Notes under the pieces: model-generated
Told to the model about the DNA's origin: nothing
Database searches by the model: none
What the model saw: only the letters and a program-made list of their open reading frames with translations
Made by a program: the position numbers and the translations under genes
In this document: in pieces, positions 3,931 through 62,059 of the stretch
Numbering within the stretch: position 1 is the stretch's first letter
Layout of the letters: the number at the start of each line of letters is the position of its first letter
Assembly (NCBI GenBank): GCA_016186645.1
Contig: JACPLF010000005.1
Span: forward strand, 109,995 to 173,994
Length of the DNA stretch: 64,000 bases
Direction of reading: 5' to 3'
From: Candidatus Levyibacteriota bacterium
GTDB lineage: Bacteria; Patescibacteriota; Microgenomatia; Levybacterales; UBA12049

Positions 3931-4630
3931 GTAAATTAACGGCAAAGATAACGGGATCATGATTTAGTAGCTGGTTCTTGGTCTTTCGTTTCAGAAGTTC
4001 TCTGACAAAGACCAGAAACTAGCGACTAAATATTCTGGCTCTTTGACCCTCCTGCGCTAAAAGCTACGGAAGGGTCAATAAGCAAAAACAAACCGTTAAG
4101 GTTAGAGACGGCATCGCCACTCGAAGCTTTAGCGAAGTGTGGCTCTTTGACAAGTGAGGAGAAGCCCTATACAAAGCTTGCTTCGCGTCGGAGGCTTACA
4201 GTCTCGCGCCCGCGAAGTGCGCTTGTACAGGGTAAATTTTTTAATTTTAAAATCTACTCATAATGCCGATAATGAATGCCTAGGAGATTTTGGCCGAGGA
4301 AGGACGCAGACGGCGGCGATACTCGTTGGGGAGGTGCCATCAACCTTTGATCCAGCGGTTTCCGAATGGAGCAATCCACTCGTCTTTGACGAGGAGCCAC
4401 TCATAAAAATATTACCGCAAGGTTTTATATAGTGTTTGGCAGGGTACGGCGCGAACCGAAACATCCAAGTAGCGCCAGGAAAATAAATCATAGACCCCGT
4501 TAGAACTTTGGTAGTAAAACTTGTTACGTTAAGAAAGATTTTGCTAACTTAACTTGAGAAGAGACTTTATTTCCAGAGTTCTAACGGGGTAGAGATTCCG
4601 TTAGTAGCGGCGAGCGAAAGCGGAACAGTC

Positions 4631-4755
4631 TAAAGCGTGCGTAGCACGCAACAGTCAACCAACAACACTTCGCCTTTGGCGAATTTCAACAAACAACAAA
4701 AATTGTTGTGAGTTGTTTGTTGTAAGTTGAAGGTTGCATGCTGCGCATGCGGTTG
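4631..4755 (+). repeat. IVS-like structured insertion in the 23S 5' domain, copy 1
   Basis: About 85 percent identical to 9214..9333. It contains the hairpins gcgtgcgtagcacgc and caacaaacaacaaaaattgttgtgagttgtttgttg. Confidence 0.6.
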
Positions 4756-4938
4756 CAGGGCAGACGATATTCGATGTATTTTTTGTAGCAGAAGGACCCG
4801 GAATGGTCCCCCAAAGAAAGTGAAAGGCTCGTACGCAAAACAAAAAATACCGATAGTTTGTTCCTAAGTACCATGGAGCACGATAAAACTCTGTGGGAAT
4901 CTGGGGCGTCCACGCTCCAAGACTAAATACCAGAATCT

Positions 4939-4977
<39 letters not shown>

Positions 4978-5562
4978 CACCCCGGAAGGGGAATGAAATA
5001 GAACTGAAATTGTCGGCTGACAAGCAGGCAGAGGAACGTAACGCGCAAGCGTGTACGTTCTGATGCCGTGCCTATTGAAGAATGAACCGGTGAGTTATTC
5101 CCTCACTTTCGTCTAAGCCATTAAGTGGCGCAGGCAAAGTGAAAGCAAGCTCTAATTGAGCATTTTTAAAGTGTGGGATTAGACCCGAAGCTGGGTGAGC
5201 TAACCTTGGGCAGGGTGAATCCCGATGAAAATCGGGAGGAGGCCCGAACTCGTGACTGTAGCAATAGTCTGAGATGACCTGAGGTTAGGGGCAATATGCC
5301 AATCGAACCCAGAGATAGCTGGTTCTCCCCGAAATATATTTAGGTATAGCGGTCGCCATGTAGTTGCCTGGGGTAGAGCACTAAATGGTTCGCGGCAACG
5401 CAAGTTGTCGTAACCAATTAAACTCCGAATACAGAGCAACATTGGGCGACTAGTCAGACTGGTCGGGCTAAGCCGATGGGTCAAAAGGGAAACAACCCAG
5501 ACTCCCAATTAAGGTCTCTAAATAAAAGCTAAGTTTAGAAGGAAGTCAAGTTCCATAGACAA

Positions 5563-5593
<31 letters not shown>

Positions 5594-6488
5594 TAAAGAA
5601 AGCGTAACAGCTCACTGGCGGATTGGAATTTGGCGCCCAAAATTTAACGAGGATTAAGCTTTTTACCGAAGTTGGAGGAACGTACACTTTTGCTTTGCAA
5701 AATGTTACGTTCGGTAGGGGAGCGTTCTAAGTGCAGCGAAGTCGTGGTGTAAACCATGGTGGAGTGCTTAGAAGTGAGAATGCCGGTATGAGTAGCGAGT
5801 GTCTGGTGAGAAACCAGGCCGCCGAAAACCCAAGGTTTCCTCCGCAATGTAAATCAGCGGAGGGTTAGTCGGTCCTAAGGGTGTTCCTCTTTGGTCCTAA
5901 GGGTGTTCCTCTTTTGGGGAGTAGCCCGATGGGCAAGTCGTTGAGATTCGACTACAAATTATACATATTCTAAGGGGAAGTCGAAGATAGAAGAATCAAG
6001 GCCAGCTAAGCTGGCTTTAAGTAGTGAAATAGGATGAAATGGTAAATACGTTCATCTGTTTAATTAAGCTACGATGAAAACCCTGAGAGCAATCGAAGGG
6101 TATTTGATCGCTTTTAACTTCCGAGAAATATCCCATTAGTTCCATTCATTTGTGAAAAAATGTATATTTTACCGTACCGACATCCGACACAGGTGGGTTG
6201 GTCGAGAAGACTAAGGCGAACGGGAGAAAGATGGTCAAGGAACTCGGCAATAAATCTGGGCGTAACTTTTGGAGATGCCCTACCAGCTACCATGCGGTAC
6301 CTGGTTGCAACAAAAGATTATTAAGCGACTGTTTATCTAAAACACAGGTCCATGCAAAACTGAAAAGTTAAGTATATGGGCTGAAGCCTGCCCAGTGCTG
6401 GTAAGTCAAAAGTTGAGAATCAGGCTCGCAAGAGTCAAAGTTTTTAACTTAAGCTCCAGTAAACGGCAGCAGTAACTATAAGAAATTG

Positions 6489-7190
6489 TAGTTGTAAAAG
6501 TCGACTAAATGCTGGAAAATCCGTACCGTGATTCTGCTTTACAGAACAAACGGTTGCAGTATCTGACGCTACCATGTATTATGGTAATAATGCGATCAGT
6601 GCGGACAATCAGCAGGAAAGACTTGACGAAGAAAGAGCTAGGATTTTTCCTTGCTGGGTTTGTTGAAGGAGAAGGAAGTTTTAATGTCTCGTTACGGCGC
6701 AAGCCTGACTATAGACTCAAATGGCAAGCGGTAATGAGTTTTAATGTTTCGCAAAAAGACCCTACCTTATTAAAAATTTTAAAGGAGGAGCTAAAATGCG
6801 GAATTATTAAAACACGTAAAAGAGACAATCTATATTCCTTTGATGCAACAAATCCTAAGGATCTAATCCAGAAAGTCATTCCATATTTCAAAAAATATCC
6901 AGTTCAATCTGATTCTAAAAAGAATAATTTTTCTATTTTTTGCAAGATAGCAAAATTAATGGAAAAAGGGGAACACAGAAATTTGGCTGGATTAAGGTTA
7001 ATCCTAAAACTTCGAGAGAAAATAAACATTGGAGCAGGAAGAACAAGGAAATATGATATAGATGATGTTTTTTCTAAGTCAGGAATCCTCAGAGACTATA
7101 CGTCGACGTCCCGCTCAGCGGGACATGATATAGTCCGACCTCATGAACGATCATGAGACTCTGTAATCAATCAGAGTACCGCGATTAGCG
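6489..7190 (+). mobile_element. 23S intron 1, inserted after GTAACTATAA (E. coli ~1917); carries a LAGLIDADG homing endonuclease ORF
   Basis: The exon sequence breaks after gtaactataa and resumes with ctgttctaaggtagcgaa. The intervening sequence encodes the endonuclease. Confidence 0.7.
6509..7156 (+). CDS. LAGLIDADG homing endonuclease (intron-encoded)
   Basis: Contains LAGFVEGEGSF and a second, degenerate motif. The probable start is the ATG at 6590 (MRSVRTISRKDL...). Confidence 0.75.
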   Translation: MLENPYRDSALQNKRLQYLTLPCIMVIMRSVRTISRKDLTKKELGFFLAGFVEGEGSFNVSLRRKPDYRLKWQAVMSFNVSQKDPTLLKILKEELKCGIIKTRKRDNLYSFDATNPKDLIQKVIPYFKKYPVQSDSKKNNFSIFCKIAKLMEKGEHRNLAGLRLILKLREKINIGAGRTRKYDIDDVFSKSGILRDYTSTSRSAGHDIVRPHERS

Positions 7191-7232
7191 GGATAACAAT
7201 GTGAACTGTTCTAAGGTAGCGAAGCCCCTTGT

Positions 7233-7496
7233 CGGGTGATGGAAAAAGCCCGAAAACTGGCTTAAAACGGTGAAGCCCTACCATGTTGCATCGTACAAGA
7301 CGATGTGTAAAAATAGAGGGTGATACCGTGGGTAAGACTTTCTTTTAAAAGAGAGAACCTGTAACGACTTGTCCCGCCAAAGGCGGGACAGAGACATAAT
7401 TTTTATGTCTAATACGCCAGCATTTAGTATAGATTTCATTGGACATTATCTTTCAGGAGATGCCGAAGCCCTATAAAAATCGGGCAGAAGGACAAT
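7233..7496 (+). other. Highly divergent, shortened 23S domain IV/V segment (corresponds to E. coli ~1936-2440)
   Basis: Only loose similarity to the canonical exon sequence. The universally conserved AAGTTCCGACCTGCACGAATGG and GACGGAAAGACCCCGTGAACCTTTACTATA blocks are not found. A weak match (catttagtatagatttcattggacattat) and gtctggtgggcag follow. Confidence 0.4.
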
Positions 7497-7787
7497 GTCT
7501 GGTGGGCAGTTTAACTGGGACGGTTGACTCCTACAATGCAACGGAGTCGTACAAAGGTTGGCTAGCTCCGGATGGAAATCGGAGTGATAGTGCAAAGGCA
7601 TAAGCCAGCTTGACTGCGAGACTTACAAGTCGAGCAGGGACGAAAGTCGGTCTTAGTGATCCTCAGTAGCATAGTGGTATGCTCTGAGCTTAACGGATAA
7701 AAGCTACCCTGGGGATAACAGGCTTATCGCATCCAAGCGTTCACAGCGACGATGCGGTTTGGCACCTCGATGTCGGCTTAACACAAA

Positions 7788-8186
7788 TAGTGTTTGGGCC
7801 CTTCAGTAAATAATTACTGTTGTAAATTTGGCTAATAACGGTGGACTCCTAATTGACTAAGTAAAGTTTCTCAAGTTATGATAAAGTCAATGGACAATAC
7901 CGTGGGAAGTCGCATTTTTCAGAACACTCGGAAGACTCGGTTTTCCAGGAACATCAGAATATCTGGCTATCAGATTGTCTGAGCCTCTGGTTTACTGAGT
8001 AATAATCTGAGTTTTCTGAAATATTGTTGACCCCGTAACGACTGATTCTTTAGCAAACTAAATTGAACCCTTAGTTTGTAATAGATGAGATTCCAGTTTT
8101 TGGAATCATACGCCGAACCCCTCTCTTTTTTCAAAAAAGTGGGGGTGATGATATAGTCTACACTTCTAGTAACAGAAGATTCATGT
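7788..8186 (+). mobile_element. 23S intron 2 (ORF-less), inserted after GATGTCGGCT; it contains repeat R1
   Basis: The exon resumes with catcgcatcctggggg...gggtcgggctgttcgcccgttaaagcggtacgcgagctgggttcagaacgtcgtaagacagt. Confidence 0.65.
7921..8022. repeat. R-family MITE-like element, copy R1 (inside 23S intron 2)
   Basis: Carries the terminal motifs cagaacactcggaagactcgg and ctgagttttctgaaat shared with R2 to R5. Confidence 0.6.
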
Positions 8187-8212
8187 GCATCGCATCCTGG
8201 GGGTGGAGAAGC

Positions 8213-8272
<60 letters not shown>

Positions 8273-8280
8273 AAGACAGT

Positions 8281-9028
8281 AGACCTATAGCGTTAATTAC
8301 GCTATTAAATGAGCTGTCTATAAATCTAGCTATTTGCTGGAAACTCCGAGTATCTTCAACTACTTGACAAATGACTTATCGTAGAGATACGATATCTCTA
8401 TGTCTAGTGATAATGTTGGAAGTGCGGACAATCAGCAGGCAGCTGGGAAAGAAATTTCTAATGAGTATTTAGCAGGATTCACCGATGGTGAAGGGTGTTT
8501 CTATGTGGGATTTGGTAAGAGAAAAGACCTGCCGCTTAAATGGCAAGTAATTACCGAATTTCATGTAAGTCAAAATCCAGGCGGGAAAAATGTTTTGGAA
8601 GAGTTCAGAGAAAGGCTTGGTTGTGGCTATTTAAAGCCCAATCATGCAAAGAGCTTGAAAGACAAAACTTGGATTTTAATTGTGAAAGATAGAAAGGATT
8701 TAAAAGAAAAACTTATTCCTTTTTTTCAGCAACACAGATTGCACACAAGCAAACAAAAAGATTTTGAAATCTTTGTAAAAGTGCTTGAAAAAATTGAAAC
8801 GGGAAAGCATTTAACTAAAGATGGTTTTAAACAAATCGTTGAATTAGTTTTTGCCACTACCAGGGTAACAAATAAAAGATATTCAAAAGAATCACTTCTT
8901 TCCTAGAGCCTCAGAGACTACATGCTAGATGATGCATTGAATAGTGCGTCAAAGATATAGTCCGAACTGCATGGCGACATGTAGAGCGTATCAGAAATGC
9001 TACGTCATTCGTAAGAATGTAACATATT
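8281..9028 (+). mobile_element. 23S intron 3, inserted after GTCGTAAGACAGT (E. coli ~2595); carries a second LAGLIDADG homing endonuclease ORF
   Basis: The exon resumes with cggtctctatccagga...cccctagtacgagaggac. Confidence 0.7.
8400..8906 (+). CDS. LAGLIDADG homing endonuclease (intron-encoded)
   Basis: Contains LAGFTDGEGCFYV. It shares the 19-nt string agtgcggacaatcagcagg with the first endonuclease gene, in a different reading frame. Confidence 0.75.
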   Translation: MSSDNVGSADNQQAAGKEISNEYLAGFTDGEGCFYVGFGKRKDLPLKWQVITEFHVSQNPGGKNVLEEFRERLGCGYLKPNHAKSLKDKTWILIVKDRKDLKEKLIPFFQQHRLHTSKQKDFEIFVKVLEKIETGKHLTKDGFKQIVELVFATTRVTNKRYSKESLLS

Positions 9029-9160
9029 GTCGGTCTCTATCCAGGACAACCGATTGAGATTTGAGGAGATTCGCCCCTAGTACGAGAGGACTGGGATGAG
9101 GAAATCCCTGGTGTGCCAGTTGTTCTTACAAGAGCATCGCTGGGTAACTATATTTCCAAC

Positions 9161-9193
<33 letters not shown>

Positions 9194-9213
9194 GTCTCCA
9201 ATATTAGATCTCT

Positions 9214-9333
9214 AGCGTGCGTAGCACGCAACAGTCAACAATCAACACAGCCGATTCAATCGGCTTTTCAACAGACAACAAAATTGTTGTAAGTTGTTTG
9301 TGGTAAGTTGAAAGTTGCATGCTGCGCATGCAT
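9214..9333 (+). repeat. IVS-like structured insertion in the 23S 3' domain, copy 2
   Basis: Homolog of 4631..4755. Compensatory hairpin changes (cttcgcctttggcgaa versus cagccgattcaatcggct) show it is a structured RNA. Confidence 0.6.
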
Positions 9334-9563
9334 AAGCCCCTTGTAGATCACGAGGTTGATAGGCAGGCAGTGGAAGAACCGCAAGGTTTTAAGCTTACCT
9401 GTACTAATGGTTGAACGAGTAGATTTAAAAATTACCGTGCCCCGCAAAAAGTGCTCTTCGAGCCCGCTACGAATAGTAGCTAAGGCGAAAAGTAAACTTT
9501 GTGGGGTATTCTCCTCACATGTCAGAGAGTCAATTGTACATTGATTTTTGAAGAAAGTAATTC

Positions 9564-9680
9564 TCTGGTAATTAGAGCGACGTGGAACTACCCTTTCCCA
9601 TTCCGAACAGGGAAGTAAAACGCGTCAGCGCTTACGATACTTTTTGCGTATTGCAGAAGGGACAATAGGTCATTGCCAGG
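9564..9680 (+). rRNA. rrf: 5S rRNA
   Basis: Terminal helix tctggtaat/attgccagg. The conserved CCCATTCCGAACAGGGAAGT block is present. Confidence 0.8.
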
Positions 9681-9733
9681 GGATTTCTTTCTTCAAAGGA
9701 AAATTTAAATAAGAATCCACTCCTCACTTTTCT

Positions 9734-16358: not shown

Positions 16359-17082
16359 ATTTTTTTCGAAGTATCCAACCCAAAATTCCTGTTGGAATTA
16401 GAGAAAATAATATCAAAGATTCAGGACCTGTTGGAGGAGCGGTTTTTATGGGAACCGGGGAGAGGACAGGAAATCCTTGTTTGATGATTTTAGCTGGAGT
16501 TGTACTCTTTTTTTCTATGCAAAATTGACTGTTGTCTTGCCCGACAGCAGGATCAGGCACGAAAGCTTTTACTTGATTTACTAAACAAATAACATTTTCT
16601 GAAAAGGAAAGTTGATTCGTATCAACAATTCTTCCAAAGATATTAAAAGTTCTTGTTTCCGAAGGCATTAGATTGTCAGCGTCAAAGGCTAACGTTCTAG
16701 TGGTGCTGTCAAAACTACCGGGTCCCGAACTAAAACTAACGAACTGAGGGAATATGTCTTGTATATGGGCCTTTTCAATAACAGTTTTTCTATTATTTGT
16801 AATTAGAACTTGAAATGTTACGATAAAATCAGATTGATATTTTGCATCATTTGGGCCTAAATTGTCAACCATCTTATTTGTGTCAGGATTTAGCACTTTG
16901 CTGTCAACAGTTATGTCTTGGGTTTTTATACAAGTTGTCCCGCCGCCGTATATGGCTTGACAAGGCTCTTCCGCAAACGCCTTTTTTGAAAATTGAAAAT
17001 TGCTCGCCTCGCTGCGAAGCGGGAAAATTGAAAATTGAAAATTGAAAAAAATAATTACTAATACTGTAAATAGCGTTTTCAT
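16336..17082 (-). CDS. Secreted cell-surface protein with a C-terminal PTG-TM-basic tail, a candidate sortase substrate
   Basis: Signal peptide. The C-terminus reads KTAPPTGPESLILFSLIPTGILGWILRKKSK. The N-terminal region carries an inserted heptamer-repeat/hairpin element. Confidence 0.5.
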   Translation of the reverse strand: MKTLFTVLVIIFFNFQFSIFPLRSEASNFQFSKKAFAEEPCQAIYGGGTTCIKTQDITVDSKVLNPDTNKMVDNLGPNDAKYQSDFIVTFQVLITNNRKTVIEKAHIQDIFPQFVSFSSGPGSFDSTTRTLAFDADNLMPSETRTFNIFGRIVDTNQLSFSENVICLVNQVKAFVPDPAVGQDNSQFCIEKKSTTPAKIIKQGFPVLSPVPIKTAPPTGPESLILFSLIPTGILGWILRKKSKQPLSL

Positions 17083-17236
17083 ATCCTGCCTTTAAGAATA
17101 GGAGTGTATCATAAATTATACCCCTTGACAACGATAGTAATATATGATGTAATACGGATGGATTTAGTCGCCTTCGGAGAAATTTTCCACAAGATGTTTC
17201 AATCTAACTATTAACTATTCACAATTAACTTAACTT

Positions 17237-18535
17237 ATGGTAAGCAAAAAAACCACGCCTCAAAAGGATGAGACTCCGGCAAAATCTGTTGATGAGATAA
17301 TTGGTTCTCCAAAGGAGAATGTTTCTGTAAAACCAGAGCCCTCTGTTATTCCGGCACAAGCTTTACCTATTCAACCAGCGCCAATTTATCCTCAGCCTGT
17401 GTCTTCTTTCGGTTATCGACAAGAACCTACGGTTACTGTTGATGTTTCGGGAATTTTGGATATTCAGCCCGAAGGCCATGGATTTTTAAGACCCAAATTT
17501 ATCCCATCCCAAAGAGATGTTTATATTTCTCAATCCCAAATAAGAAGATTCATGCTTCGTCCTGGAGATTTGATTAAGGGTGTGGGAAGACCTCCAAAAG
17601 ACACAGAGCGATATTTTGGGCTTTTGAAAGTTGAAACAGTTAATGACATGCCAGCGGACAGCTCTCTAAATAGACCATATTTTGATGATCTGACTGCTGT
17701 TTATCCCAAAAAACAAATAACTCTTTCAACCGGTAAGCTGCCTTTGTCAACCCGCATGATTGATCTTATCTCGCCGATTGGATTTGGGCAAAGAGGAATG
17801 ATCGTGTCGCCTCCAAAAGCCGGGAAAACAACAATTCTTAAAGAAATTGCAGCAGGAATTGCGCAAAATTATCCCAAAGCGCATCTCATGGCAGCATTAA
17901 TTGGAGAACGACCTGAAGAAGTCACAGATATTGCGCAATCTGTAAAAGGAGATGTGGTCGCATCGCACTTCGACGAACCGCCAGATGCCCAGACAAGAGT
18001 TGCGGAAATTACTTTGGAGAGGGCAAGAAGACTTGTTGAGATGGGGACAGACGTTATTATTCTTCTTGATTCAATAACACGTTTGGCAAGAGCTTATAAT
18101 TTGTCGGTCGCCCCTTCGGGTCGAACCCTATCGGGAGGATTTGACCCGGCAGCATTGTGGCCTGCGAAAAAATTCTTCGGAGCGGCGAGAAACTGCCAGG
18201 AGGGCGGATCTCTGACAATTATTGGAACCGCTTTGGTTGATACAGGTTCCAGAATGGATGATTTGATCTACGAGGAGTTTAAAGGAACCGGTAATTTGGA
18301 ATTGCATTTGGACAGAAGATTGGCAGACCGAAGAATATTCCCCTCGATTGATATTGCACGTTCAGGGACTCGTCAGGAAGAATTATTATTATCTGAAAAA
18401 GATTTGAAAAAGGTTTCTACAATGAGAAGGATGATTGATATGCTTGGACCTGAAGAACGAACAAGTATATTTGTGGAAAGGCTTTCAAAAACCGCTACCA
18501 ACGAAGAATTCCTAGAGAGTTTGGGAAAGGGATAA
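17237..18535 (+). CDS. rho: Transcription termination factor Rho
   Basis: RNA-binding OB domain, Walker A PPKAGKTT and Q/R loops. 432 aa. Confidence 0.9.
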   Translation: MVSKKTTPQKDETPAKSVDEIIGSPKENVSVKPEPSVIPAQALPIQPAPIYPQPVSSFGYRQEPTVTVDVSGILDIQPEGHGFLRPKFIPSQRDVYISQSQIRRFMLRPGDLIKGVGRPPKDTERYFGLLKVETVNDMPADSSLNRPYFDDLTAVYPKKQITLSTGKLPLSTRMIDLISPIGFGQRGMIVSPPKAGKTTILKEIAAGIAQNYPKAHLMAALIGERPEEVTDIAQSVKGDVVASHFDEPPDAQTRVAEITLERARRLVEMGTDVIILLDSITRLARAYNLSVAPSGRTLSGGFDPAALWPAKKFFGAARNCQEGGSLTIIGTALVDTGSRMDDLIYEEFKGTGNLELHLDRRLADRRIFPSIDIARSGTRQEELLLSEKDLKKVSTMRRMIDMLGPEERTSIFVERLSKTATNEEFLESLGKG

Positions 18536-18576
18536 TCTTTTAAGGTGTCATGCTGAACTAGTTTCAGCATCTCAAA

Positions 18577-18876
18577 TTAAGGCTTGACTGGCGGTCTTGA
18601 GAGTTTCGGTGGTGGGTTTTCAATTACTTCGACTAATTTTTCTCTTGGTGGTGGATTAACTTTGCCTCCTGATCCAGAAAATGGATGCAAGCCTTCTGGG
18701 TTAAAGTTTGTATGTGGTTCTGTGACCGTTAGAGGCTTTTTGTCACGAAGACGTTCTATTTCTTTGTCTCTTCTTCTTCTGGCTTCTGCAGCTCTGTCAG
18801 CTCTTTCTGCCCTTTCTCTTTCTTCTCTTCTTGCAATTTCTGCAACTTTGTCGCTTCTAAGCGTGTATTCTGACAT
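18577..18876 (-). CDS. Hypothetical Arg/Glu-rich protein (99 aa)
   Basis: ORF within the ~1-kb segment bracketed by the duplicated rho 3' end. Confidence 0.35.
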   Translation of the reverse strand: MSEYTLRSDKVAEIARREERERAERADRAAEARRRRDKEIERLRDKKPLTVTEPHTNFNPEGLHPFSGSGGKVNPPPREKLVEVIENPPPKLSRPPVKP

Positions 18877-18986
18877 ATCTTAACTTTATTATAAACTTTT
18901 TTGTCTTTTTGTCAAGCAATGAATTTTTTAGGCCATTTACATTTGTAGGCATTTAACCATTAACAGCGATCGCAGTGTCCAGTTAA

Positions 18987-19322
18987 ATGGCTGGAGAGAC
19001 TGGTGGAGAAATAAACAAAAAAACTACTATACTTTTTGCAGCCATGCTGCATAATACAATTATGAAGAAACAAACAGCGCATTTTCAAGTTATCAATAGG
19101 GGAATTGTTTTTTATTTTACAAAAGAGCCTAAAGGAGGATATGCAGTAGTTGTTCCTTCCTTACCAGGATGTGTTTCATATGGTAAAAATTTTGAGGAGG
19201 CAATGAGAATGATAAAAGATGCTATGCAAGGCTATTTGGCAATCGTAAAAGAAGAAGGACTTTTAATTCCCCAAGAAATAGAAGAAAATAAAGGAAATGC
19301 GGGCTTTGGTCTTGCCTTCTAA
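18987..19322 (+). CDS. hicB: HicB-family antitoxin (UPF0150)
   Basis: GGYAVVVPSLPGCVSYGKNFEEAMRMIKDAMQGYL matches the HicB fold. The true start may be the internal ATG at about 19064. Confidence 0.6.
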   Translation: MAGETGGEINKKTTILFAAMLHNTIMKKQTAHFQVINRGIVFYFTKEPKGGYAVVVPSLPGCVSYGKNFEEAMRMIKDAMQGYLAIVKEEGLLIPQEIEENKGNAGFGLAF

Positions 19323-19429
19323 TGCCAAACTTACCATCTTTAAAACCACGGGAGATTGCTAAACTTCGAGCAATTATTCGCGAAGCGCAATTAACACTGG
19401 ATGACATAGCGAAGTTTTTGAAAAATTAA
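19322..19429 (+). pseudogene. Truncated HicA-like toxin remnant (35 aa, MPNLPSLKPREIAKL...)
   Basis: Its start overlaps the hicB stop (TAATG). Only the N-terminal HicA-like segment is retained. Confidence 0.35.
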
Positions 19430-19599
19430 TCAAATTTATCTCCCAAACAACTCTTCTTACCAAAAGAACTTTTGCCGAGAAACTAGGCATTTGCAGAGTT
19501 TACCTAGATGCTAAGGAAATTGTAGATTGATTTATATCAAACGAAGAATTCCTCGAGAGTCTGGGAAAAGGCTAATTACAGAGAATTAAGATTTACGAT

Positions 19600-19974
19600 T
19601 TAAGAATTAAGAATAGATTTTGTCTTCTGAATAAACCCTTGTAATAATTGATGAGTAAAATTTGCCTGTTTAACTAGATCATCTAAGTCTTTTTTGTTGA
19701 GATATCCCACACCTCTAGCAATAAGAATAAAATTCTTAAGTTCTGTTAATGATCCTTGAGCAGTAAAATAAAATTGAAGTTTTTCTTTATATGAATGTCT
19801 GCCAAAACCCTCTGCGATATTTGCTGTTATTGATGCCGCCGATCTTCTCATCTGATCGATCAAAGAATACATCTCTTGTTTCGGAAAGCCTTGTGTAATT
19901 TTATAAACAAGCAGTACTAATTTATGGCCTTCCTGCCAGACTTTCAAGTCTGTAAAAGACTTAATAGTGCTCAT
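19600..19974 (-). CDS. Four-helix-bundle protein (23S rRNA IVS protein / S23-like family)
   Basis: DLKVWQ...QMRRSAASITANIAEGFGR...AQGSLTEL matches the family signature. It is flanked by inverted 'gatttaagaat' repeats. Confidence 0.7.
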   Translation of the reverse strand: MSTIKSFTDLKVWQEGHKLVLLVYKITQGFPKQEMYSLIDQMRRSAASITANIAEGFGRHSYKEKLQFYFTAQGSLTELKNFILIARGVGYLNKKDLDDLVKQANFTHQLLQGFIQKTKSILNS

Positions 19975-20054
19975 TCTTAAATCTTACATCATAATTCTTA
20001 AATCTCCAAAAAGTTGCTTTTTGGATCCCTTTTTGCTACCATTTTTTCTCAACC

Positions 20055-21164
20055 ATGATTAAACCCTCCCTTAGTTTTTTAGGCGCAAGTATCACAGATT
20101 TCTCTAAATTCTGTCAGTTTTTCTTCTCATATTTAAAGAAAAAAGTCATTATATTATCGCGAATTTTCGAGTCATACAAAAATACTCTAGTTAAATTATT
20201 TACCATCAAAAGAGGCCGATACAACAGGCCATTTATGCATGTTGCGGCAATGGGAGTTTTGGGAATCGGCGTTATTTTATCTCCGTTTTTGGCAGATACT
20301 TACCCAATATTTTCAGGGGATAAGGCAAATGCTTTACAAATCAGTTCTCCATCAGGTCCTGAATCGATTGCAGTAGATAGCGATGTTTTCCAAACAAGTA
20401 TTTCTCTAAAACCAAGAGACAAAATTCTAGATTATACTGTTGAAAGGGGAGACACTCTTTCAACAATTGCGGAGAAATTTGGAATTTCGGTTGAGACCAT
20501 CCGTTGGGCAAATGATTTGACCAATGACAACATTGCTGTTGGAGACAGTCTCAAAATCCTTCCGGTCACAGGTATTGCACACAAAGTTGCCAAAGGGGAA
20601 TCGGTCTATTCTATCGCGAAAAAATTGGATTCGGATGCCCAAAAAATAGTTGACTTTCCATTCAATGATTTTGCAAATCCTGAAACATTTTCTTTGGTGG
20701 AAGGACAGATATTAATAGTACCAGACGGTGTGAAGCCTGCAGAACAGCCGACCTTCAGGCGTCAAGTCTTTATTGCTTCAGGTCCGGTTTCAATTTCGGG
20801 TCTAGGTTTCACATGGCCGGCTCACGGAATCGTGAGTCAGTTTGCTGCTTGGTACCACATGGCTATAGATATTGCTGCGTCAATTGGCACACCTATTGTG
20901 GCAGCCCAAAATGGAGTGGTGGAAAGCGTAAATGTTGGGACATGGGATGGCGGTTATGGAACAAGCGTCTATGTTAGGAATGGAGATGTTCAGACCCACT
21001 ACGCTCATCTTGGGGGAATAAATGTATCTGTTGGGCAATCGGTTTCTGCCGGAGCAACAGTCTTAGGATGGATTGGAATGACAGGAAGAACCACAGGTCC
21101 TCATGTTCATTTTGAGATTATCAAAAACGGCGTTCTGGTTAACCCACTACCGTATCTTCAGTAG
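20055..21164 (+). CDS. LysM-domain M23 family peptidase
   Basis: Two LysM repeats (DYTVERGDTLSTIAEKFGI...) and the M23 motifs HMAIDIA...HYAHL...GPHVHFEI. Confidence 0.75.
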   Translation: MIKPSLSFLGASITDFSKFCQFFFSYLKKKVIILSRIFESYKNTLVKLFTIKRGRYNRPFMHVAAMGVLGIGVILSPFLADTYPIFSGDKANALQISSPSGPESIAVDSDVFQTSISLKPRDKILDYTVERGDTLSTIAEKFGISVETIRWANDLTNDNIAVGDSLKILPVTGIAHKVAKGESVYSIAKKLDSDAQKIVDFPFNDFANPETFSLVEGQILIVPDGVKPAEQPTFRRQVFIASGPVSISGLGFTWPAHGIVSQFAAWYHMAIDIAASIGTPIVAAQNGVVESVNVGTWDGGYGTSVYVRNGDVQTHYAHLGGINVSVGQSVSAGATVLGWIGMTGRTTGPHVHFEIIKNGVLVNPLPYLQ

Positions 21165-25464: not shown

Positions 25465-28400
25465 TTAGTTCACAATAAGCCAGTTGAAAGGGATTGGGTT
25501 TTTGTTGGGGGATTGGACGCCGACAGTAAACTCCGCAGGTAATTGGCGCATTAAAAATGGCGATTGAGCGCTGGGCGTTCCCACAGGAGTTATATAAATG
25601 ACTGACTCGTTGGTTACAAGAGCGTTTTTGATAGTAAGTTCTGCGTAATAGGGAGCGATATTAGCAACCCCTGCTGAAGAACTTGCTATTGCCTCTGTTG
25701 CAGAAACAGCCAATACAGGCTGGACAAGGCTGAAGTTAAGTTTTGCAAAAGTACCGGAACCTGAGGAAATTAAATCGCCCTTTTGATTTATAGATAAAAC
25801 ACCAGACCCGCTTGCATTATTTACAACCAGATCTGAAGTCGGGAGAGGAGAAATAATATTTACAGCAAGTTTGCCTAAAACAGTTAAATCTCCTTGAGTC
25901 GAAATATTTCCGTGGGTATCAATATAAACAAGTCCTCCCATAATTGAAAGTCCGCCTTGCCTTAAGCTTTGCAAAGATAAATCAGTTCCTAATGTTTCTA
26001 TAGAATTTTGCGTAATAAACATTGTTCCTCCTATTGAAATATTTCCTACGACTGAAAGATCGGATAGAGATGTTGATCCAAATACCATAAGTCCTTGATT
26101 GAAAAGTGCCTGTTCTGCTTGAAGATTAGGTACATAAGCAATTTGAGCCGAGAAAGATGCGACATCTATGTAGTTAGATGAGAGATGAGATGTTAGAAAT
26201 GAAAAAGCTCTTAATGTGCCGCTTATTGATGCATTTTCAAACTGACCGTCAAGAGCTGATAACTGACCGCTGAATGATGCATCGCCTTCATTATTAATAG
26301 TAGTGATTGCAGAGCCGCTTGAGTTTTGAATTATGAATTGTGAATCATGAATCTCTGCCGATGGTGTTGCCAATTTGACGATTAATGATTTACCTAGAGG
26401 TGAAATAATATTGGCTGAGACCTGATCAGTTCTTATAATCGGAGAAATTATTCCTGCTTGCCCCCCGAAGTCTTGACGAAGGGGGGATTCTTGAATCACG
26501 TCAACAATATAATCCCTTAGATTCTGGCCGTTAACTATTATATTATCCGAGGTAACAATCAGTGAGTTTGCAATTATTTCTTGAGCGTTAAGAAGGCCGG
26601 TTTTAATATTAGCAGCTACAACTTTAAAAAATCCTCCGACATTACTTAAAGTTTCATTTTGAGAATCAACAGAATAGCCATTGGATCCTGTTTTATGAAT
26701 AATCAGGTCGCCATTATTAGCTAAATACGCGCCCGGATCAAACCAGGAGATATTTGCAAAAGTATTGATCTTTACAATCTTAATGATGTTTGGTTTTAAC
26801 GGAACATTAGGAAAGCCATCCTTGCTTCTATACTCTTTGCTATCAGGATCATAGAAGCCTACTACTTTTCCCTCATCTATAATGTCTAAATTTTCCAAAG
26901 CCTTTCCGACAATTTGTCCTGCTTTTGTTGCTTTTACTGCTACTCCGGGGATATCAGATGATGCTAACGCATCGCCGGCTTTAATCGTTCCGTTAGAGAT
27001 AGAGACGAGAGTATCAACTTGTCCGATAAGACCAACTGCTATTGAGCTATCACCAAGATTTTCTCCTCCCAGAAATGCTGGTCGCTCGGATGCAATACCC
27101 AAAATTTTACCATTATTATTATCACATGGAACAACAAAGCCATTATTTAGACAGACAACAGAGCCAAATTCTATTTTTAGATATTTATCTTTTTTGAAGT
27201 ATTCAGCAAAGTCAGCGACACCGGATGTTGCATAAGTCACGCCTTTCCCGCCACTTCCTTGAATAGATCCGACAATTCCAATTCCTGCTGTTTGAAAGCT
27301 CACAAAGTGATTTGTGCTGGCAACTGCGGTAGTTGAAGTATTGCCCAGTTTTATAACAAGACCATCCGCATCTGTTCCAGAACTTGTATTGTAAATTTGA
27401 GCAGCAGCGGTTGCTGATTGAGAATCTTGAATGTCTAGTTTTGATAATGGTGTCGTTGTTCCAATTCCTACGTTTCCCGTATTGATCCATGAATTATTTC
27501 CGCTAGTTCCGCTAAACTTAATCAAAGCAGAAGAAGTAGCAGTTGCTCCTAGTAGGATATCATCTGATATATTGGTTGGGCTGAGCGCAGCCGAAGCCCT
27601 TTGCCACGGTCCAAATGTTCCTGTTGAGGCAGAATATATGTTGTCAATATAAGCATTGTCCCAAGGCAGAGAAGCAGACCCTAGATTATTGGTTCCGCTT
27701 GTTCCGATCGGAACAAGACTTGAATCTTGTGCGACTCGACCGGTGAAGGTAATAGTGTCAGTGGCTGCATCTCCCAGCGTAACGCTTCCCTGTATATTGG
27801 CTGTTGCATTTCTTATAGTTATGGTGCCTGTTGACGCTCCAAGAACGAGTGTTGTTGCTGCTCCTCCAACATTTAAGGTAGTAACAGTTGAATTCAGAAG
27901 GTTGAAAGTTGTGGCTGTACTTGTCATATCTCCGCCGTTTATTCCAAGATCTCCGGCAAACAATCCAGCCCCATCGCTTTCAACACCAAATTTGGCAATA
28001 CCGGATGTACTGGCGCTAATCAGACTCCCTATTGAATTCTGATTGATATGAAAGGCTGATTGTGCACTTGTTGTTGCCAGTATAGCCACGTTATCATCGA
28101 ACTCTACCGCCCCTTTCATAAATGATACGTTGCTATTGTTTGTGCTATTCTGAATGGGTTTTGAAAGATCTATTTTTCCGACACCATCAGGCACGATTTC
28201 CACCCTGCTATTACTGCCTGGGACTGTTGTCAAAGACAATATGCTTCCGGAAAGCACGAATTGGCCGCCGATGGTCTGAAAAGTGTGCGCTTTTGAGCCT
28301 GCAATGCTAAGATTGCCCGAGGAATCCAAAGCCAAGACGACATTACTTACTTTGGTTGAATTTGTGATGGGTTCAAGTCCTTGTAATGTTTCAGCATTAC

Positions 28401-29892
28401 TTGCAAAAGGCACTGTAGCCAACTCTTGACGCGGACTAAGCTCTGGACCGCTCCCAATAGTAATTCCCAAGAAAAGCTGCGAATTCTGGCTAAAAAGAGT
28501 ATCAGGAATAGGGGTAGTCTTGCCAAGAAACACTGAGAATATCCCATCTGAATCAGGTTCTATCGAGTTGCTTTCCTGCCAAAGAAAGGCCGCACCTGAA
28601 GCATTTTGGTCATTATAGATAGAAAAGAGAATATTTGTCGCATTGGTTATAGGATTATCAGATGAGTCGGTCAGTTTTCCCTGAAAAGAAAGAATTCGGG
28701 GGGGAGCAAATGAAGCTGCAGCAAGTGTCGCTCCTTCTTTTTGGCTTTGTGCAAAAAGACTATCATATGTTCCAAAACCAAGCGCTGCAGCTACGATAAT
28801 AAGGATCGCAAAATGGAAATAATGGGTAAATGAGTATGAGTGATACTTTTTGTACCAGTTGGGTCGTACATGCCGAATATAATGCCAGACTCTTTTGTGG
28901 TTTGGTAAATAGCGTGTTGAAACGGTGAGGGGGGCATAAAACTCCTTCTTAATATTTGAAACCGGAATTAATGACTCAGAGTCAAATTTGGATTTCTTGA
29001 ATACTCTTTTTCCCGATGCTTTCCAAAATAAATACTGTGTACTCTCAACAGTTTTGACAAGCGGCAATATAAAGATGGCATCAAAGAGGAAATCAGCGCC
29101 ATTTATGAGCTTTTGCGTTAATCTCAGAGGTGGAAAAGAAGATCTGTTCGGAATACTCGGAAGACTCGGTGCGTCAGATTGCTCGCCTCGCTCAAGCTTC
29201 GGCGAAGAGGGTCTTATTATCTGATAGTCAGAATTTCTGATGGTCTGGATTTCGGAGTCTTCTGAGTTTTCTGAAATTAATTTCTGGTTTTTTGCCCAAG
29301 CAATATAATTCCTTAAAGACGAAAGTTTTCTATTGATAGTCCTGGGAGAAAATTTAGCCGCAATTAGTCTTTGCTTGTATTCTTCAATGGTTGTGTAATT
29401 GACTTTGTCTAGTAAATTTCTTTCCGTGACAACCCATGCGTATTTGATAAGCGTTACTTCCTCAAGCCACACGAAGAAACTTTTGATATCGTTGATGTAG
29501 TTTTTTATAGTAAGATTAGATTTTTTATACTCGTAAAGATAGCTTTTGAAATTCCTAAGCATCCATGGATCCGCCTCCGCCAAGGCTTCGGCGGACACAG
29601 TCCTTTTTTCAAGTGGATCTTGTGAGATTATTTTGTTTGTTTGGAGCAACTTAAAAAACTTACGCAAAGAGGAAAAATGTCTCTCCATGGAGCTTGGAGA
29701 AAGACTCCTTGCTTTTTTGTACTGATCTAAGATGACAAGGTTAACTTTTGATGGATCAAAAGGGGAATTAAATTCTTTTTCGAACCAGTTTATAAATTGT
29801 CCGATATCAGCTTTATAATTTTTGAAAGTAGAAAGAGATGGTGTATCTTTTTGATTTATCAGGAAATTAAGGAATTGTTGTAATAAATTCAT
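25465..29892 (-). CDS. Giant (1475 aa) cell-surface protein: N-terminal integrase-SAM-like repeats, one TM helix, then a long Ser/Thr/Gly/Asn-rich extracellular region
   Basis: Three core-binding-like repeats (FKNYKADIGQFINWF / IKNYINDIKSFFVWL / INRKLSSLRNYIAWA). TM helix HYFHFAILIIVAAALGFGTY. No recombinase catalytic domain. Confidence 0.6.
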   Translation of the reverse strand: MNLLQQFLNFLINQKDTPSLSTFKNYKADIGQFINWFEKEFNSPFDPSKVNLVILDQYKKARSLSPSSMERHFSSLRKFFKLLQTNKIISQDPLEKRTVSAEALAEADPWMLRNFKSYLYEYKKSNLTIKNYINDIKSFFVWLEEVTLIKYAWVVTERNLLDKVNYTTIEEYKQRLIAAKFSPRTINRKLSSLRNYIAWAKNQKLISENSEDSEIQTIRNSDYQIIRPSSPKLERGEQSDAPSLPSIPNRSSFPPLRLTQKLINGADFLFDAIFILPLVKTVESTQYLFWKASGKRVFKKSKFDSESLIPVSNIKKEFYAPLTVSTRYLPNHKRVWHYIRHVRPNWYKKYHSYSFTHYFHFAILIIVAAALGFGTYDSLFAQSQKEGATLAAASFAPPRILSFQGKLTDSSDNPITNATNILFSIYNDQNASGAAFLWQESNSIEPDSDGIFSVFLGKTTPIPDTLFSQNSQLFLGITIGSGPELSPRQELATVPFASNAETLQGLEPITNSTKVSNVVLALDSSGNLSIAGSKAHTFQTIGGQFVLSGSILSLTTVPGSNSRVEIVPDGVGKIDLSKPIQNSTNNSNVSFMKGAVEFDDNVAILATTSAQSAFHINQNSIGSLISASTSGIAKFGVESDGAGLFAGDLGINGGDMTSTATTFNLLNSTVTTLNVGGAATTLVLGASTGTITIRNATANIQGSVTLGDAATDTITFTGRVAQDSSLVPIGTSGTNNLGSASLPWDNAYIDNIYSASTGTFGPWQRASAALSPTNISDDILLGATATSSALIKFSGTSGNNSWINTGNVGIGTTTPLSKLDIQDSQSATAAAQIYNTSSGTDADGLVIKLGNTSTTAVASTNHFVSFQTAGIGIVGSIQGSGGKGVTYATSGVADFAEYFKKDKYLKIEFGSVVCLNNGFVVPCDNNNGKILGIASERPAFLGGENLGDSSIAVGLIGQVDTLVSISNGTIKAGDALASSDIPGVAVKATKAGQIVGKALENLDIIDEGKVVGFYDPDSKEYRSKDGFPNVPLKPNIIKIVKINTFANISWFDPGAYLANNGDLIIHKTGSNGYSVDSQNETLSNVGGFFKVVAANIKTGLLNAQEIIANSLIVTSDNIIVNGQNLRDYIVDVIQESPLRQDFGGQAGIISPIIRTDQVSANIISPLGKSLIVKLATPSAEIHDSQFIIQNSSGSAITTINNEGDASFSGQLSALDGQFENASISGTLRAFSFLTSHLSSNYIDVASFSAQIAYVPNLQAEQALFNQGLMVFGSTSLSDLSVVGNISIGGTMFITQNSIETLGTDLSLQSLRQGGLSIMGGLVYIDTHGNISTQGDLTVLGKLAVNIISPLPTSDLVVNNASGSGVLSINQKGDLISSGSGTFAKLNFSLVQPVLAVSATEAIASSSAGVANIAPYYAELTIKNALVTNESVIYITPVGTPSAQSPFLMRQLPAEFTVGVQSPNKNPIPFNWLIVN
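29146..29278. repeat. R-family element, copy R2, in-frame within the giant surface-protein gene (encodes a low-complexity linker)
   Basis: Carries gttcggaatactcggaagactcgg ... tctgagttttctgaaatt. Confidence 0.6.
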
Positions 29893-48895: not shown

Positions 48896-49912
48896 GCGTG
48901 GTGCAAAACTCGTTGTAGATTGATTTGACAATCAAAAAGGCAGTTGACACAATGAAAATGTTGAAGAAACAACGTTTTCTTTCCAAAAGGAGGTGTTAAC
49001 TGCCCATGACTTTTGTACCAAAATTACCGCATAAAGTCCAGTATCTTTTTCATAGCTCATATCCTTTTGTTGCAAAACTTTGTGAGAAAACCAAGATTGA
49101 GAAATTTATCGGTGGAAGACCCGGCTATGATAAAGACTTTTTGTTCTCTCTTCTTTTAATGAAACGGGTAACCAATTGGAGTTTCAGAACTATTGCTGAA
49201 ATGGGAGGAATCTCTCATTCAACCCTTGTCAGGGCAAATACATATTTCTTAACCCATCATGTATATGAAAAATTCTTCCTTTTCTTAGTTAAAAAAGCCT
49301 ACGGGAAAGGATTAATTAAAGGTAAGTTTGTAGCCATGGATTCAAGTTTTGTTCAGACCTTTTCAGGCAAACAAGAAGAAGGAAGTGAAGGATGGAATGG
49401 TTTCAAAGAAGCCTATGGATTCAAGCTCCATTTACTTATTGATTGTGAAACAAAATTTCCCATTGCTTTAACAATAACCAATGGACTGGCAAGTGACAAT
49501 ACTTTAGCAATCCCATTGTTAAAAAGAGCAAAGAATTGGTTGAAAAAATGCGGTTATGTTCTTGCAGATAAAGGATACGATGATGGAGAAATTATTGATT
49601 TCATTGTAAAAGCTTTCTCCGCTAAAGCAGGAATACCAATCAGGAAACACAATAGAGGAAAGAACTATTCATGGAGAGGAGCAACAAAAAACTTTCAGTT
49701 GAAAGCCAAAGGAAGAACATTAAAAAAGAGTGTTTACAACAGAAGAACTGCTGTTGAGAGGGTTTTCTCTGTTCTTAAAAGGGTATTTCATTTAGGAAAA
49801 GAAGAGGTACGGGGAATTCTTTCTTTTGCCAAACAGGTCTATCTGACCTTAATTTGTTACATGCTTAAGCTCTTTGACATTGCTATATCAAGCTAATGGA
49901 TGTTTTGCACCA
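48896..49912. mobile_element. IS4/IS5-superfamily insertion sequence with 12-13 bp target duplication
   Basis: Terminal inverted repeats gtggtgcaaaac / gttttgcaccag. Flanking direct repeat GGGTTACTTTT(T)C at 48883..48894 and 49914..49926. The target lies inside a hairpin gtcaacc...ggttgac. Confidence 0.65.
49006..49896 (+). CDS. DDE transposase (IS4/IS5 family)
   Basis: DDE_Tnp_1-like motifs FVAMDSSFV ... YVLADKGYDDGEI ... AVERVFSVLKR. Confidence 0.8.
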   Translation: MTFVPKLPHKVQYLFHSSYPFVAKLCEKTKIEKFIGGRPGYDKDFLFSLLLMKRVTNWSFRTIAEMGGISHSTLVRANTYFLTHHVYEKFFLFLVKKAYGKGLIKGKFVAMDSSFVQTFSGKQEEGSEGWNGFKEAYGFKLHLLIDCETKFPIALTITNGLASDNTLAIPLLKRAKNWLKKCGYVLADKGYDDGEIIDFIVKAFSAKAGIPIRKHNRGKNYSWRGATKNFQLKAKGRTLKKSVYNRRTAVERVFSVLKRVFHLGKEEVRGILSFAKQVYLTLICYMLKLFDIAISS

Positions 49913-50053: not shown

Positions 50054-50772
50054 CTATTTTCTCCTGAATTTTTCTTTTATTCTTTCCTGATCAAGCAGGT
50101 AGGCTTTTTTGTCTTCTTGGAGCTTCTTTTCTAAAGACTGTACCAAAACTCTAAGTAGATAATCCGTTTTATTAATCAACTCAATAAATATCTCGTAAGT
50201 TAAGTCTCGGGCTTTGATTTTAGATAGAGGAGAATAAAGGAGAGTTAGAGGACGGTAAAGGAAAAGACTATCTGAATCGGGAGGAGCTTTCTTACCCGGC
50301 ATAACTTTTTCCTTTATATCTCCTTTAGTATCCTTTAATTGTCCTTTAGGTTTGAGCGCGGTATTCAAATCTTTAAGATTAATACCAATGCCTTGAAGAC
50401 TTAATCCTGGTTTGCTGGGCAGAAATCCATCTTCAGTGAGCTCTCGGATATCTCCTTTGACTTCCTCTAAAGACCCCTGGCTAAAACTTATAAATTCTAT
50501 ATAAGCAGAGGTATTTGAGCGTTTATAGCCTTCCTCAATATTTCGGACAACACTTCGTCCGGCATCATCCAATTGAGCTTTTCTTCGATATTCTGATTTC
50601 GGAAGACTTGATGTGAATGTTCTTATTAAAAAACGAAGTAAAACAGTATTTGATCATTGGACAAGATATCTATAGCCTTGAGGGTGTTGCCAAACCCTAG
50701 AACTTTGTAAGGGCTTACTCGGAACTGAAAGTTCTGCCATTGTTTTGGCGATTAGATCTTTGGCGATATCAG
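50054..50772 (-). pseudogene. Second four-helix-bundle (IVS-protein family) gene, frameshifted
   Basis: The C-terminal frame gives ...LPKSEYRRKAQLDDAGRSVVRNIEEGYKRS...GSLEEV. The N-terminal piece (MTDIAKDLIAK...SSRVWQ...) is in another frame and ends in a stop. Confidence 0.45.
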
Positions 50773-61951: not shown

Positions 61952-62059
61952 CACAATTCAGAATCTAGAATTCAAAATCTACTCAAGCTAAAGAGATAAG
62001 TTTAGGCATTTAATCATTGACCGCGGCCGCTTGATATGGTTAAATAAATTTATTTTATT

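Follow-up and report, generated by a model that had tools for sequence, protein, structure and literature searches.

In a 64,000-nucleotide (nt) stretch of a Levybacteria-like genome (Microgenomates, Candidate Phyla Radiation; G+C content, 38%), hereafter the window, the rho gene is intact and its last codons are repeated about 1 kb downstream. Our best reading, to which we give a probability of about 0.55, is that the downstream copy (copy 2) duplicates the rho 3′ end and stands orphaned at the downstream edge of an insert of ~1 kb that derives from a cassette around a PaaX-like gene, and that it was duplicated by a Campbell-type crossover. The window was compared with 160 related rho loci out of more than 1100 Microgenomates pattern matches (80 from species-representative genomes and 80 from metagenomes; these related Levybacteria/Microgenomates stretches are labeled L001 and so on), and gap counts use the 157 loci in which the rho stop lies on the contig. 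PaaX-like contexts were compared in 11 cases, out of at least 426 homologues.

The rho tail and its displaced copy

A repeat search of positions 17000 to 21000 returned a single strong direct repeat of 37 nt, with 33/37 positions identical (89%) and a spacing of 1040 nt. This bore out an earlier note on the same DNA, which had reported the end of rho to be repeated 1 kb downstream; its coordinates for copy 1 were right, whereas those for copy 2 (19542-19578) were about 3 nt too high (Table 1). The four mismatches between the copies (CTA/CTC, TTG/CTG, AAG/AAA, and GGA/GGC) were all recorded as synonymous third-position differences, and copy 2, read in frame as ..D*FISNEEFLESLGKG*, still encodes NEEFLESLGKG followed by a stop at 19573-19575. 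Local alignment confined the similarity to the stretch from the Asn codon to 1 base past the stop, with unrelated flanks on both copies, and thereby ruled out a longer duplication hidden in the flanks. When the last 36 nt of rho were matched against all downstream sequence, the window scored 32/36 and the unduplicated loci at most 23/36 (80 related loci), and a peptide-level scan for the rho tail gave a score of 57 in the window over a background of no more than 24. Thus, these background scores ruled out a chance repeat. A weak 15-nt tail match in L027 was judged to be chance.

Copy 2 has no start codon, and an in-frame stop stands four codons upstream of it. Across genomes, the displaced copies lie at offsets of 0, +1, and +2, hence in all three frames relative to rho, and no consistent start codon accompanies them; therefore, read-through and frameshifting do not explain the copies, and translation from a start of their own was likewise rejected. 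These results agree with the view of the earlier note that copy 2 is a displaced rho 3′ end.

The native arrangement downstream of rho was taken from the relatives. In 115 of the 157 loci, no more than 350 nt separate the rho stop from the start of a LysM/M23 peptidase gene (median gap, 129 nt), and the corresponding gap in the window is 1519 nt. The uninterrupted rho-M23 site was compared base by base in L093, L088, L002, and L001. The leader and promoter of the M23 gene (..TTTTTGCTACCATTT..TCTCAACC-ATG, aligned by eye) is conserved between the window, these four loci, and L179, and in the window this region begins directly past a four-helix-bundle cassette. Given the conserved promoter position and the length of the gap, the interval therefore resolves into three parts, namely, a 1040-nt unit ending in copy 2, a 417-nt cassette, and ~60 nt of native spacer. 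Judged from these alignments, the DNA between the two copies is a true insertion relative to a conserved empty site, and the insertion at the end of rho that the earlier note had proposed is upheld by relatives in which rho is directly followed by the LysM/M23 gene. The nearest relatives (L087, L093, L001, L002, and L088) have no second tail copy, yet they have the same M23 promoter. All contigs with an identical Rho, ORF99, or M23 protein carry the island, and no near-identical strain without it was found among them.

The Rho protein of the window is 63 to 95% identical to those of the 160 loci. Its gene is a mosaic, being nearest to L087 (88 to 92% nucleotide identity) at alignment codons 100 to 280 and nearest to L089 and L092 over the last 40 codons, a pattern that suggests recombination within rho.

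Table 1. Features of the rho-M23 interval in the window (positions are those of the window)
Feature	Position	Strand	Description
rho	17237..18535	+	432 amino acids (aa), intact; Pfam Rho_RNA_bind + ATP-synt_ab
Copy 1	18500..18536	+	Working last 11 codons and stop of rho (NEEFLESLGKG*)
Terminator-type hairpin	18538..18582	+	Core stem 18551-18558 / 18564-18571; between convergent rho and ORF99
ORF99	18577..18876	-	Orphan open reading frame (ORF) of 99 codons, Arg/Glu/Pro-rich; no Pfam match
Promoter-like site	18888..18915	-	TTGACA-16-TATAAT, 12/12; just upstream of ORF99; consensus match only
PaaX operator/promoter remnant	18948..18990	+	Palindromic, GGCATTTAAC...GATCG...GTTAAATGG
hicB antitoxin gene	19062..19322	+	86 aa per NCBI annotation; Pfam HicB_lk_antitox (PF15919), E = 8.5e-10
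hicA remnant	19322..19429	+	35 codons; residues 16-56 (core, 41 codons) deleted in frame
PaaX-like remnant	19454..19525	+	Pseudogenized last 23 codons with two stops (FLPKELLPRN*AFAEFT*MLRKL)
Junction before copy 2	19529..19539	+	GATTTATATCA; homologous to L179 GATTTATCTC and L089 TTGTCTC
Copy 2	19540..19576	+	Displaced, untranslated rho tail; 33/37 identical to copy 1; in-frame stop before it
Four-helix-bundle cassette	19582..19998		Gene 19600-19974 (-), Pfam 23S_rRNA_IVP, E = 9e-35; 26-nt inverted repeats 19582-19607 / 19973-19998
LysM/M23 peptidase, native neighbor	19999..21164	+	Promoter/5′ region, then gene 20055-21164; Pfam; synteny

A PaaX-type cassette and its remains

Better-preserved islands were found at the same position in related loci. 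In L179 (Rho, ~89% identical), rho is followed by a GC-rich repeat element, a palindromic operator, an intact gene for a 268-aa PaaX-like protein, a hairpin, a second tail, the native terminator hairpin, and the M23 gene, and its two tails are identical at 34/37 positions with three synonymous differences. In L089 (Rho, 86%), the order is rho, a 162-codon minus-strand ORF (ORF162), a gene for a 263-aa PaaX-like protein (PaaX_M + PaaX_C), and a second tail, after which the contig ends; here too the tail copies differ synonymously. Silent-only differences in the window, L179, and L089 are thus as expected if both copies began as functional alleles. L092 shows rho, then the PaaX-like gene, then the contig end, and in L176 the rho end is followed by a different ORF and then by a truncated PaaX operator and hicB-hicA. 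A decayed second tail stands 565 nt downstream of rho in L003 (Rho, 84%), around a different single ORF. The PaaX-like protein combines a winged helix with a Cas2-like domain, whose motif FD(I/V)..Q.SV is invariant in 18 family members and absent from Escherichia coli PaaX. Nothing turned up, within the library searched, on integration into the rho 3′ end or on Patescibacteria PaaX.

Within the window island, no open reading frame contains a PaaX_M or PaaX_C domain, and just the operator and the last 23 codons of the gene are left. The operator motif also stands upstream of the PaaX-like gene in L179, L089, L092, and L170 and of a second PaaX-like gene in the window (at 62005), and it is truncated in L176. 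The coding remnant is 61 to 65% identical to the PaaX C termini of L089 and L179 (tblastn, E about 1e-5), and its nucleotide identity to L179 3311-3383 is 74%. The ~10 nt preceding copy 2 are homologous among the window, L179, and L089 (83% identity between window 19529-19576 and L179 3486-3532), which argues that the junction arose once.

Between these two remnants lies the hicB-hicA pair. The window HicB is 100% identical to P0002, named HicB family antitoxin, and its 60 homologues all match PF15919; a 111-codon ORF starting at 18987 is a mechanical extension of hicB. The deletion in hicA was defined by alignment to the intact 76-aa HicA_toxin of L178, which adjoins a 72%-identical HicB, and no intact HicA toxin and no Pfam match for the 35-codon remnant were found in the island. 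At the nucleotide level, the window hicB-hicA is 77% identical to that of L178 and 93% identical to that of L176. As in type II HicAB toxin-antitoxin systems, a HicB-family gene overlaps the start of the hicA frame, and the DNA resembles the intact L178 pair; unlike in such systems, the toxin lacks residues 16 to 56 and cannot work as HicA, and the module is a passenger and not the cause of the duplication. The HicB, truncated HicA, and Arg-rich ORF that the earlier note placed between the copies are all present, as established by Pfam, the L178 alignment, and the minus-strand ORF99, respectively. Its further claim that the element carried a toxin-antitoxin module did not hold, since hicB-hicA sits between the surviving operator and the last 23 PaaX codons and thus later replaced the PaaX body. 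As far as these remnants can be read, the window island is what is left of a PaaX-type cassette that hicBA overwrote, and the locus itself is one of ordinary decay.

The remaining gene of the island, ORF99, found only itself among 5.8 billion proteins. Its C terminus (RPPVKP*) is common to ORF162 of L089, with 24 nt at 96% identity (BLASTP, E = 0.028, C terminus only).

Tail duplication was also found at two other kinds of loci. In six Curtissbacteria-like loci (L063, L072=L154, L139, L143, L144, and L149), whose Rho is 66 to 74% identical to that of the window, the rho tail is repeated after only 31 to 71 nt without cargo, in duplicate or in triplicate (three copies in L143), yielding arrays of tails and hairpins (L143 6069-6270, L139 6264-6450, and L063 7069-7175). 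Between the tails lies a hairpin flanked by conserved sequence (TTCYTTGCG ... CTAAAG); its stems differ by compensatory changes, and at the stem base the end of one tail pairs with the start of the next. All copy differences are silent in most of these loci, including serine TCN/AGY switches, and the copies of L144 and L149 are decayed. The hairpin unit was considered as a general mobile repeat and rejected, as TTCYTTGCG...CTAAAG occurred nowhere but after rho in 1.5 Mb.

The second kind of locus concerns a different gene, that of penicillin-binding protein 2 (PBP2). By following PaaX homologues, we located loci (L167, L173, and L175) in which the PBP2 gene is followed by a small ORF, a PaaX-like gene, a copy of the PBP2 tail, and dprA. 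The copied tail comprises the last 9 to 11 codons and stands directly at the PaaX stop, upstream of dprA-topA (in L167, 3591-3627 and 5297-5324). A PBP2 tail copy likewise follows PaaX in L170, L171, and L174, with at least two displaced copies in L171; the displaced PBP2 copies bear replacement substitutions and are in decay. When every ORF of at least 120 aa was scanned across all loci plus the window (~1.6 Mb), rho and PBP2 were the only genes with tail-only duplications, which ruled out tail duplication as a general genome feature; one more match (L054) represented tandem paralogues.

The window has a second PaaX-like gene at 62060-62950, which shows no tail duplication and is split into two ORFs by a GC-rich element of ~105 nt (62421-62527). 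This element is bounded by the inverted repeats TTTACCCCG...CGGGGTTTAC and, with an exact 23-mer in common, also occurs between rho and PaaX in L179 (~2320-2480) and L180 (1225-1247). It looks like a small mobile repeat.

Origin of the duplication

On the sequence comparisons described above, a Campbell-type crossover is the best reading of how the tail came to be duplicated. The comparisons support descent of the insert from a small cassette around the PaaX-like regulator gene, bounded by both rho tails as in L179 and, as far as the contig reaches, in L089. The incoming DNA would have come from a related genome, probably in circularized form, with its own copy of the rho 3′ end, and a single crossover at the chromosomal rho 3′ end, carried out by the homologous recombination machinery of the host or by a trans-acting recombinase, would have left rho intact and a spare tail beyond the insert. 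The two copies would have begun as working alleles differing only at synonymous sites. In the window lineage, as the comparisons support, the PaaX body was replaced by hicB-hicA, followed by the 41-codon in-frame loss of the hicA core; the small ORF adjoining rho shrank or was exchanged, and the four-helix-bundle cassette arrived separately past copy 2. Today, the island is probably immobile, being inherited vertically and transferred between lineages via homologous recombination inside rho.

It is documented that one crossover between a circular molecule and the chromosome can leave the shared segment duplicated on either side of an insert, whereas one-sided illegitimate recombination normally yields deletions (PMC3240628). 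As expected of a Campbell-type event, both repeats in the window are alleles of the target sequence itself, and the borders have nothing further in common. It further resembles insertion-duplication in the direct duplication on both sides of the insert, in the lack of an element-encoded enzyme, and in copies that differ where the alleles differ. It is unlike it in scale, since experimental duplications span 109 to 950 bp (PMC3240628) versus 37 bp here, or perhaps ~85 bp if the hairpin was originally included.

Several observations weigh against a Campbell-type origin. Copy 2 is more conserved among the window, L089, and L179 than its flanks are, and it covaries with copy 1 at a replacement site (Ser in both copies of the window and L089, Ala in both copies of L179); such covariation and conservation are unexpected for a passive relic. 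Moreover, the native-type hairpin stands after copy 1 in the window and after copy 2 in L179, and after both in no genome, a switch that requires either a longer original duplication of tail and hairpin with differential loss or a later rearrangement. Together, the covariation, the conservation, and the hairpin switch suggest that the duplication once included the hairpin, that gene conversion operated between the copies, or that excision was reversible. For RecA-type recombination, a segment of 37 nt is close to the minimum length. No circular form, donor genome, or excision product was seen among the sequences compared, every contig with identical proteins having the island. Finally, the mechanism alone leaves unexplained why a PaaX-like gene lies at the junction of two targets, and the abutment of this gene on the displaced tail at PBP2 hints that the mechanism is tied to that gene and is not an accident.

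Site-specific integration of the classical kind would explain the footprint differently: an integrase would have acted on an attP carrying the rho tail, the copies would be attL and attR, and later deletions would have removed the integrase along with most of the element. Elements of this kind are known at the 3′ ends of tRNA, tmRNA, and protein-coding genes, such as SGI1 in trmE and integrative and conjugative or integrative and mobilizable elements in guaA, rpsI, and fda. The island shares with them a repeat that completes the gene and another at the far end, a repeat ending about at the stop codon, an empty site, and a conserved essential target; indeed, the textbook mark of integration is a pair of direct repeats that start within a conserved gene and end at its stop codon, one of them restoring the full gene. 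Further points in its favor are the empty rho-M23 site in relatives, the patchy distribution of the island among close relatives, and the left 11 to 14 nt of the repeat (GAAGAATTCCT, an imperfect palindrome around GAATTC), which are identical between copies in the window and L089, as a crossover region needs. However, no recombinase was found in any of the five island versions (the window, L176, L089, L179, and L003), of which the best preserved are just 1.2 to 1.5 kb, or among the 20 largest ORFs of other inserts downstream of rho, whose cargo consists of a copper ATPase with CsoR, a GH5 cellulase, CAP/dockerin proteins, AbiEii, and unknowns, and no catalytic integrase domain was detected in 10 candidate window ORFs. 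Two degenerate patterns of the rho tail, searched for as a possible attP, had no match in the viral contigs of IMG/VR, the one collection covered, and a comparison of L003 with the PaaX islands revealed no conserved arm sequences beside the repeats. In addition, the duplication also occurs with just a hairpin between the copies, as well as at an unrelated PBP2 tail beside the same cassette gene. In size (1 to 1.5 kb), in the lack of integrase and arms, in the cargo-free cases, and in the second, unrelated target, the island is thus unlike known attL/attR elements. Positive support for an integrase is confined to the footprint itself, and we regard this explanation as unlikely. The earlier note had favored it, describing a decayed integrative element that lost its integrase, but the better-preserved islands of L179 (complete) and L089 (nearly complete) contain a PaaX-like gene accompanied by a small ORF or a repeat element, and neither encodes a recombinase.

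Two window ORFs touch on the recombinase search. A 1475-aa ORF at 25465-29892 on the minus strand contains two integrase-type SAM-like N-terminal domains and Peptidase_G2, with no catalytic recombinase domain, and an ORF at 49006-49896, 30 kb away, encodes an insertion sequence-type DDE transposase and adjoins a truncated second four-helix-bundle ORF (50054-50572).

A further alternative is that the PaaX-like protein directs its own gene into the 3′ ends of conserved essential genes, with the cassette supplying the replacement tail. The 3′ end of the PaaX-like gene lies 0 to 110 nt from the displaced tail both at rho (L179, L089, and the remnant in the window) and at PBP2 (L167, L170, L171, L173, L174, and L175), the two genes to which the ORF scan confined tail-only duplications. 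The FD(I/V)..Q.SV motif kept in the 18 family members includes the Cas2 Asp, the cassette is patchily distributed, and a cotransferred rho segment is present. On the other hand, PaaX is a characterized repressor family, a conserved palindromic operator is typical of autoregulators, and no nuclease or recombinase activity is known for the family. Moreover, there are PaaX copies without tail duplication, such as that at 62060-62950, as well as rho-tail duplications without PaaX (L003 and the Curtissbacteria-type loci), and the association with PBP2 is partly a matter of ascertainment, the cases having been found via PaaX homologues. Action by the PaaX-like protein itself therefore appears rather improbable. 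It would be an equally long shot to regard the cassettes as unrecognized integrative or homing elements of Microgenomates that lack a canonical recombinase and carry the last 10 to 12 codons of rho or PBP2/mrdA, the window being a dead copy with PaaX overwritten by hicBA; the tail and hairpin arrays of the Curtissbacteria-like loci might then possibly record serial events of the same process. A parallel is found in organelles, where, in the Allomyces atp6 case, a free-standing homing endonuclease gene at a gene end has reportedly brought a replacement C terminus and left the native one downstream. The rho islands are like these genes in the duplicated tail, the mostly silent differences, the patchy distribution, the co-conversion of flanks, and the later decay, but their insert is a PaaX-like regulator with a Cas2-like domain and belongs to no known homing endonuclease family.

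Alternatively, the second tail and its hairpin could be a functional repeat, kept for a role in cis (as a rho terminator, in RNA stability, or in regulation of the next gene), with the island having landed between preexisting copies. This would fit the cargo-free Curtissbacteria-like units of two or three copies with compensatory stem changes, the better preservation of copy 2 than of its flanks in the window, L089, and L179, and the purine-rich stretch that the displaced PBP2 tail carries just upstream of the dprA start. The variation of copy 2, however, has codon periodicity, including Ser TCN/AGY switches, and points to a protein-coding past instead of a signal in RNA or DNA; some copies have decayed (those of L003, L144, and L149 and of PBP2), and copy 2 occurs in all three frames relative to rho and without a start codon. 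A cis function of copy 2 is unlikely in the window because the nearest relatives lack the copy while sharing the M23 promoter. The earlier note had allowed for a terminator repeat if relatives showed the duplication without island content; the Curtissbacteria-like loci do so, with their hairpin spacers, but the nearest relatives have no duplication at all, and thus the repeat is not simply a conserved terminator repeat. We consider a functional repeat very improbable. Chance similarity or an assembly artifact, for which the short length of the repeat alone would speak, is negligible in view of the background scores, the same structure in an NCBI metagenome-assembled genome and several independent Logan assemblies, and the homologous copies at the same junction in L089 and L179.

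Taken together, 3′-end duplication has affected rho recurrently in Candidate Phyla Radiation bacteria, organisms with tiny genomes, few recognizable mobile elements, and no genetics. The same signature, with the same cassette gene, occurs at a second essential gene, no recombinase was found, and the displaced copies retain an intact amino acid sequence much more often than would be expected of dead relics. The single locus is of modest interest; what is new relative to the known kind of footprint is the recurrent, recombinase-free pattern at two essential genes. If insertion at essential-gene ends were indeed recombinase free or PaaX dependent, it would help to explain how reduced genomes gain and shuffle accessory genes and might offer an engineering handle for these bacteria. 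If it were simply a Campbell-type crossover after DNA uptake, these loci would be a natural record of such recombination.

Hairpins, accessory genes, and adjoining cassettes

The hairpin that follows copy 1 folds with -13 kcal/mol (z = -2.3) and is, by alignment, homologous to one directly after rho in L091 and L001 and to one after copy 2 in L179. A search for known RNA families in the region returned just two downstream tRNAs. Upstream of rho, at 16988-17050, a GC-rich hairpin is flanked by tandem GAAAATT repeats, and many intergenic hairpins of the related loci are flanked by similar AT-rich short-repeat tracts.

The rho-M23 spacer is also a hot spot for accessory genes, with inserts in L087 (2100-5044), L015 (7212-9032), L009 (7357-8892), and L126 (2459-3094). 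Their cargo includes a CsoR-like gene (recognized by eye) with a copper ATPase, a GH5 cellulase, a CAP/dockerin protein, and an AbiEii toxin, and these inserts have neither a tail duplication nor a recombinase.

The four-helix-bundle cassette folds as one long stem-loop and is absent from the spacers of relatives; it is a separate insertion after copy 2, outside the rho-tail island. Its protein matches 23S_rRNA_IVP far better than bAvd. With an Avd-like neighbor in mind, the tail copies were considered as template and variable repeats of a diversity-generating retroelement, and this was rejected, as the differences (A/C, T/C, G/A, and A/C) are all silent and not adenine specific and 37 nt is too short relative to the ~100 nt or more of such repeats. 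Pfam searches with 16 window ORFs, not an exhaustive scan of the window, revealed no reverse transcriptase domain. Cassettes of the 23S_rRNA_IVP family, ~420 to 460 nt in length, were also seen in L034 (115-538), L038 (2251-2710), and L062 (10847-11277); like that of the window (19582-19998), they are bounded by inverted repeats of 22 to 44 nt that differ in sequence, and they resemble rRNA intervening sequences yet lie outside rRNA.

Elsewhere in the window, the rRNA region spans 4263-9681, where the 23S rRNA matches Rfam in pieces (4263-7299 and 7426-7707) and the 5S rRNA lies at 9564-9681. An ORF at 8400-8906 contains a LAGLIDADG-like motif, recognized by eye. The 3′ part of the 23S rRNA, missing from these matches, must be interrupted, likely by introns or intervening sequences.

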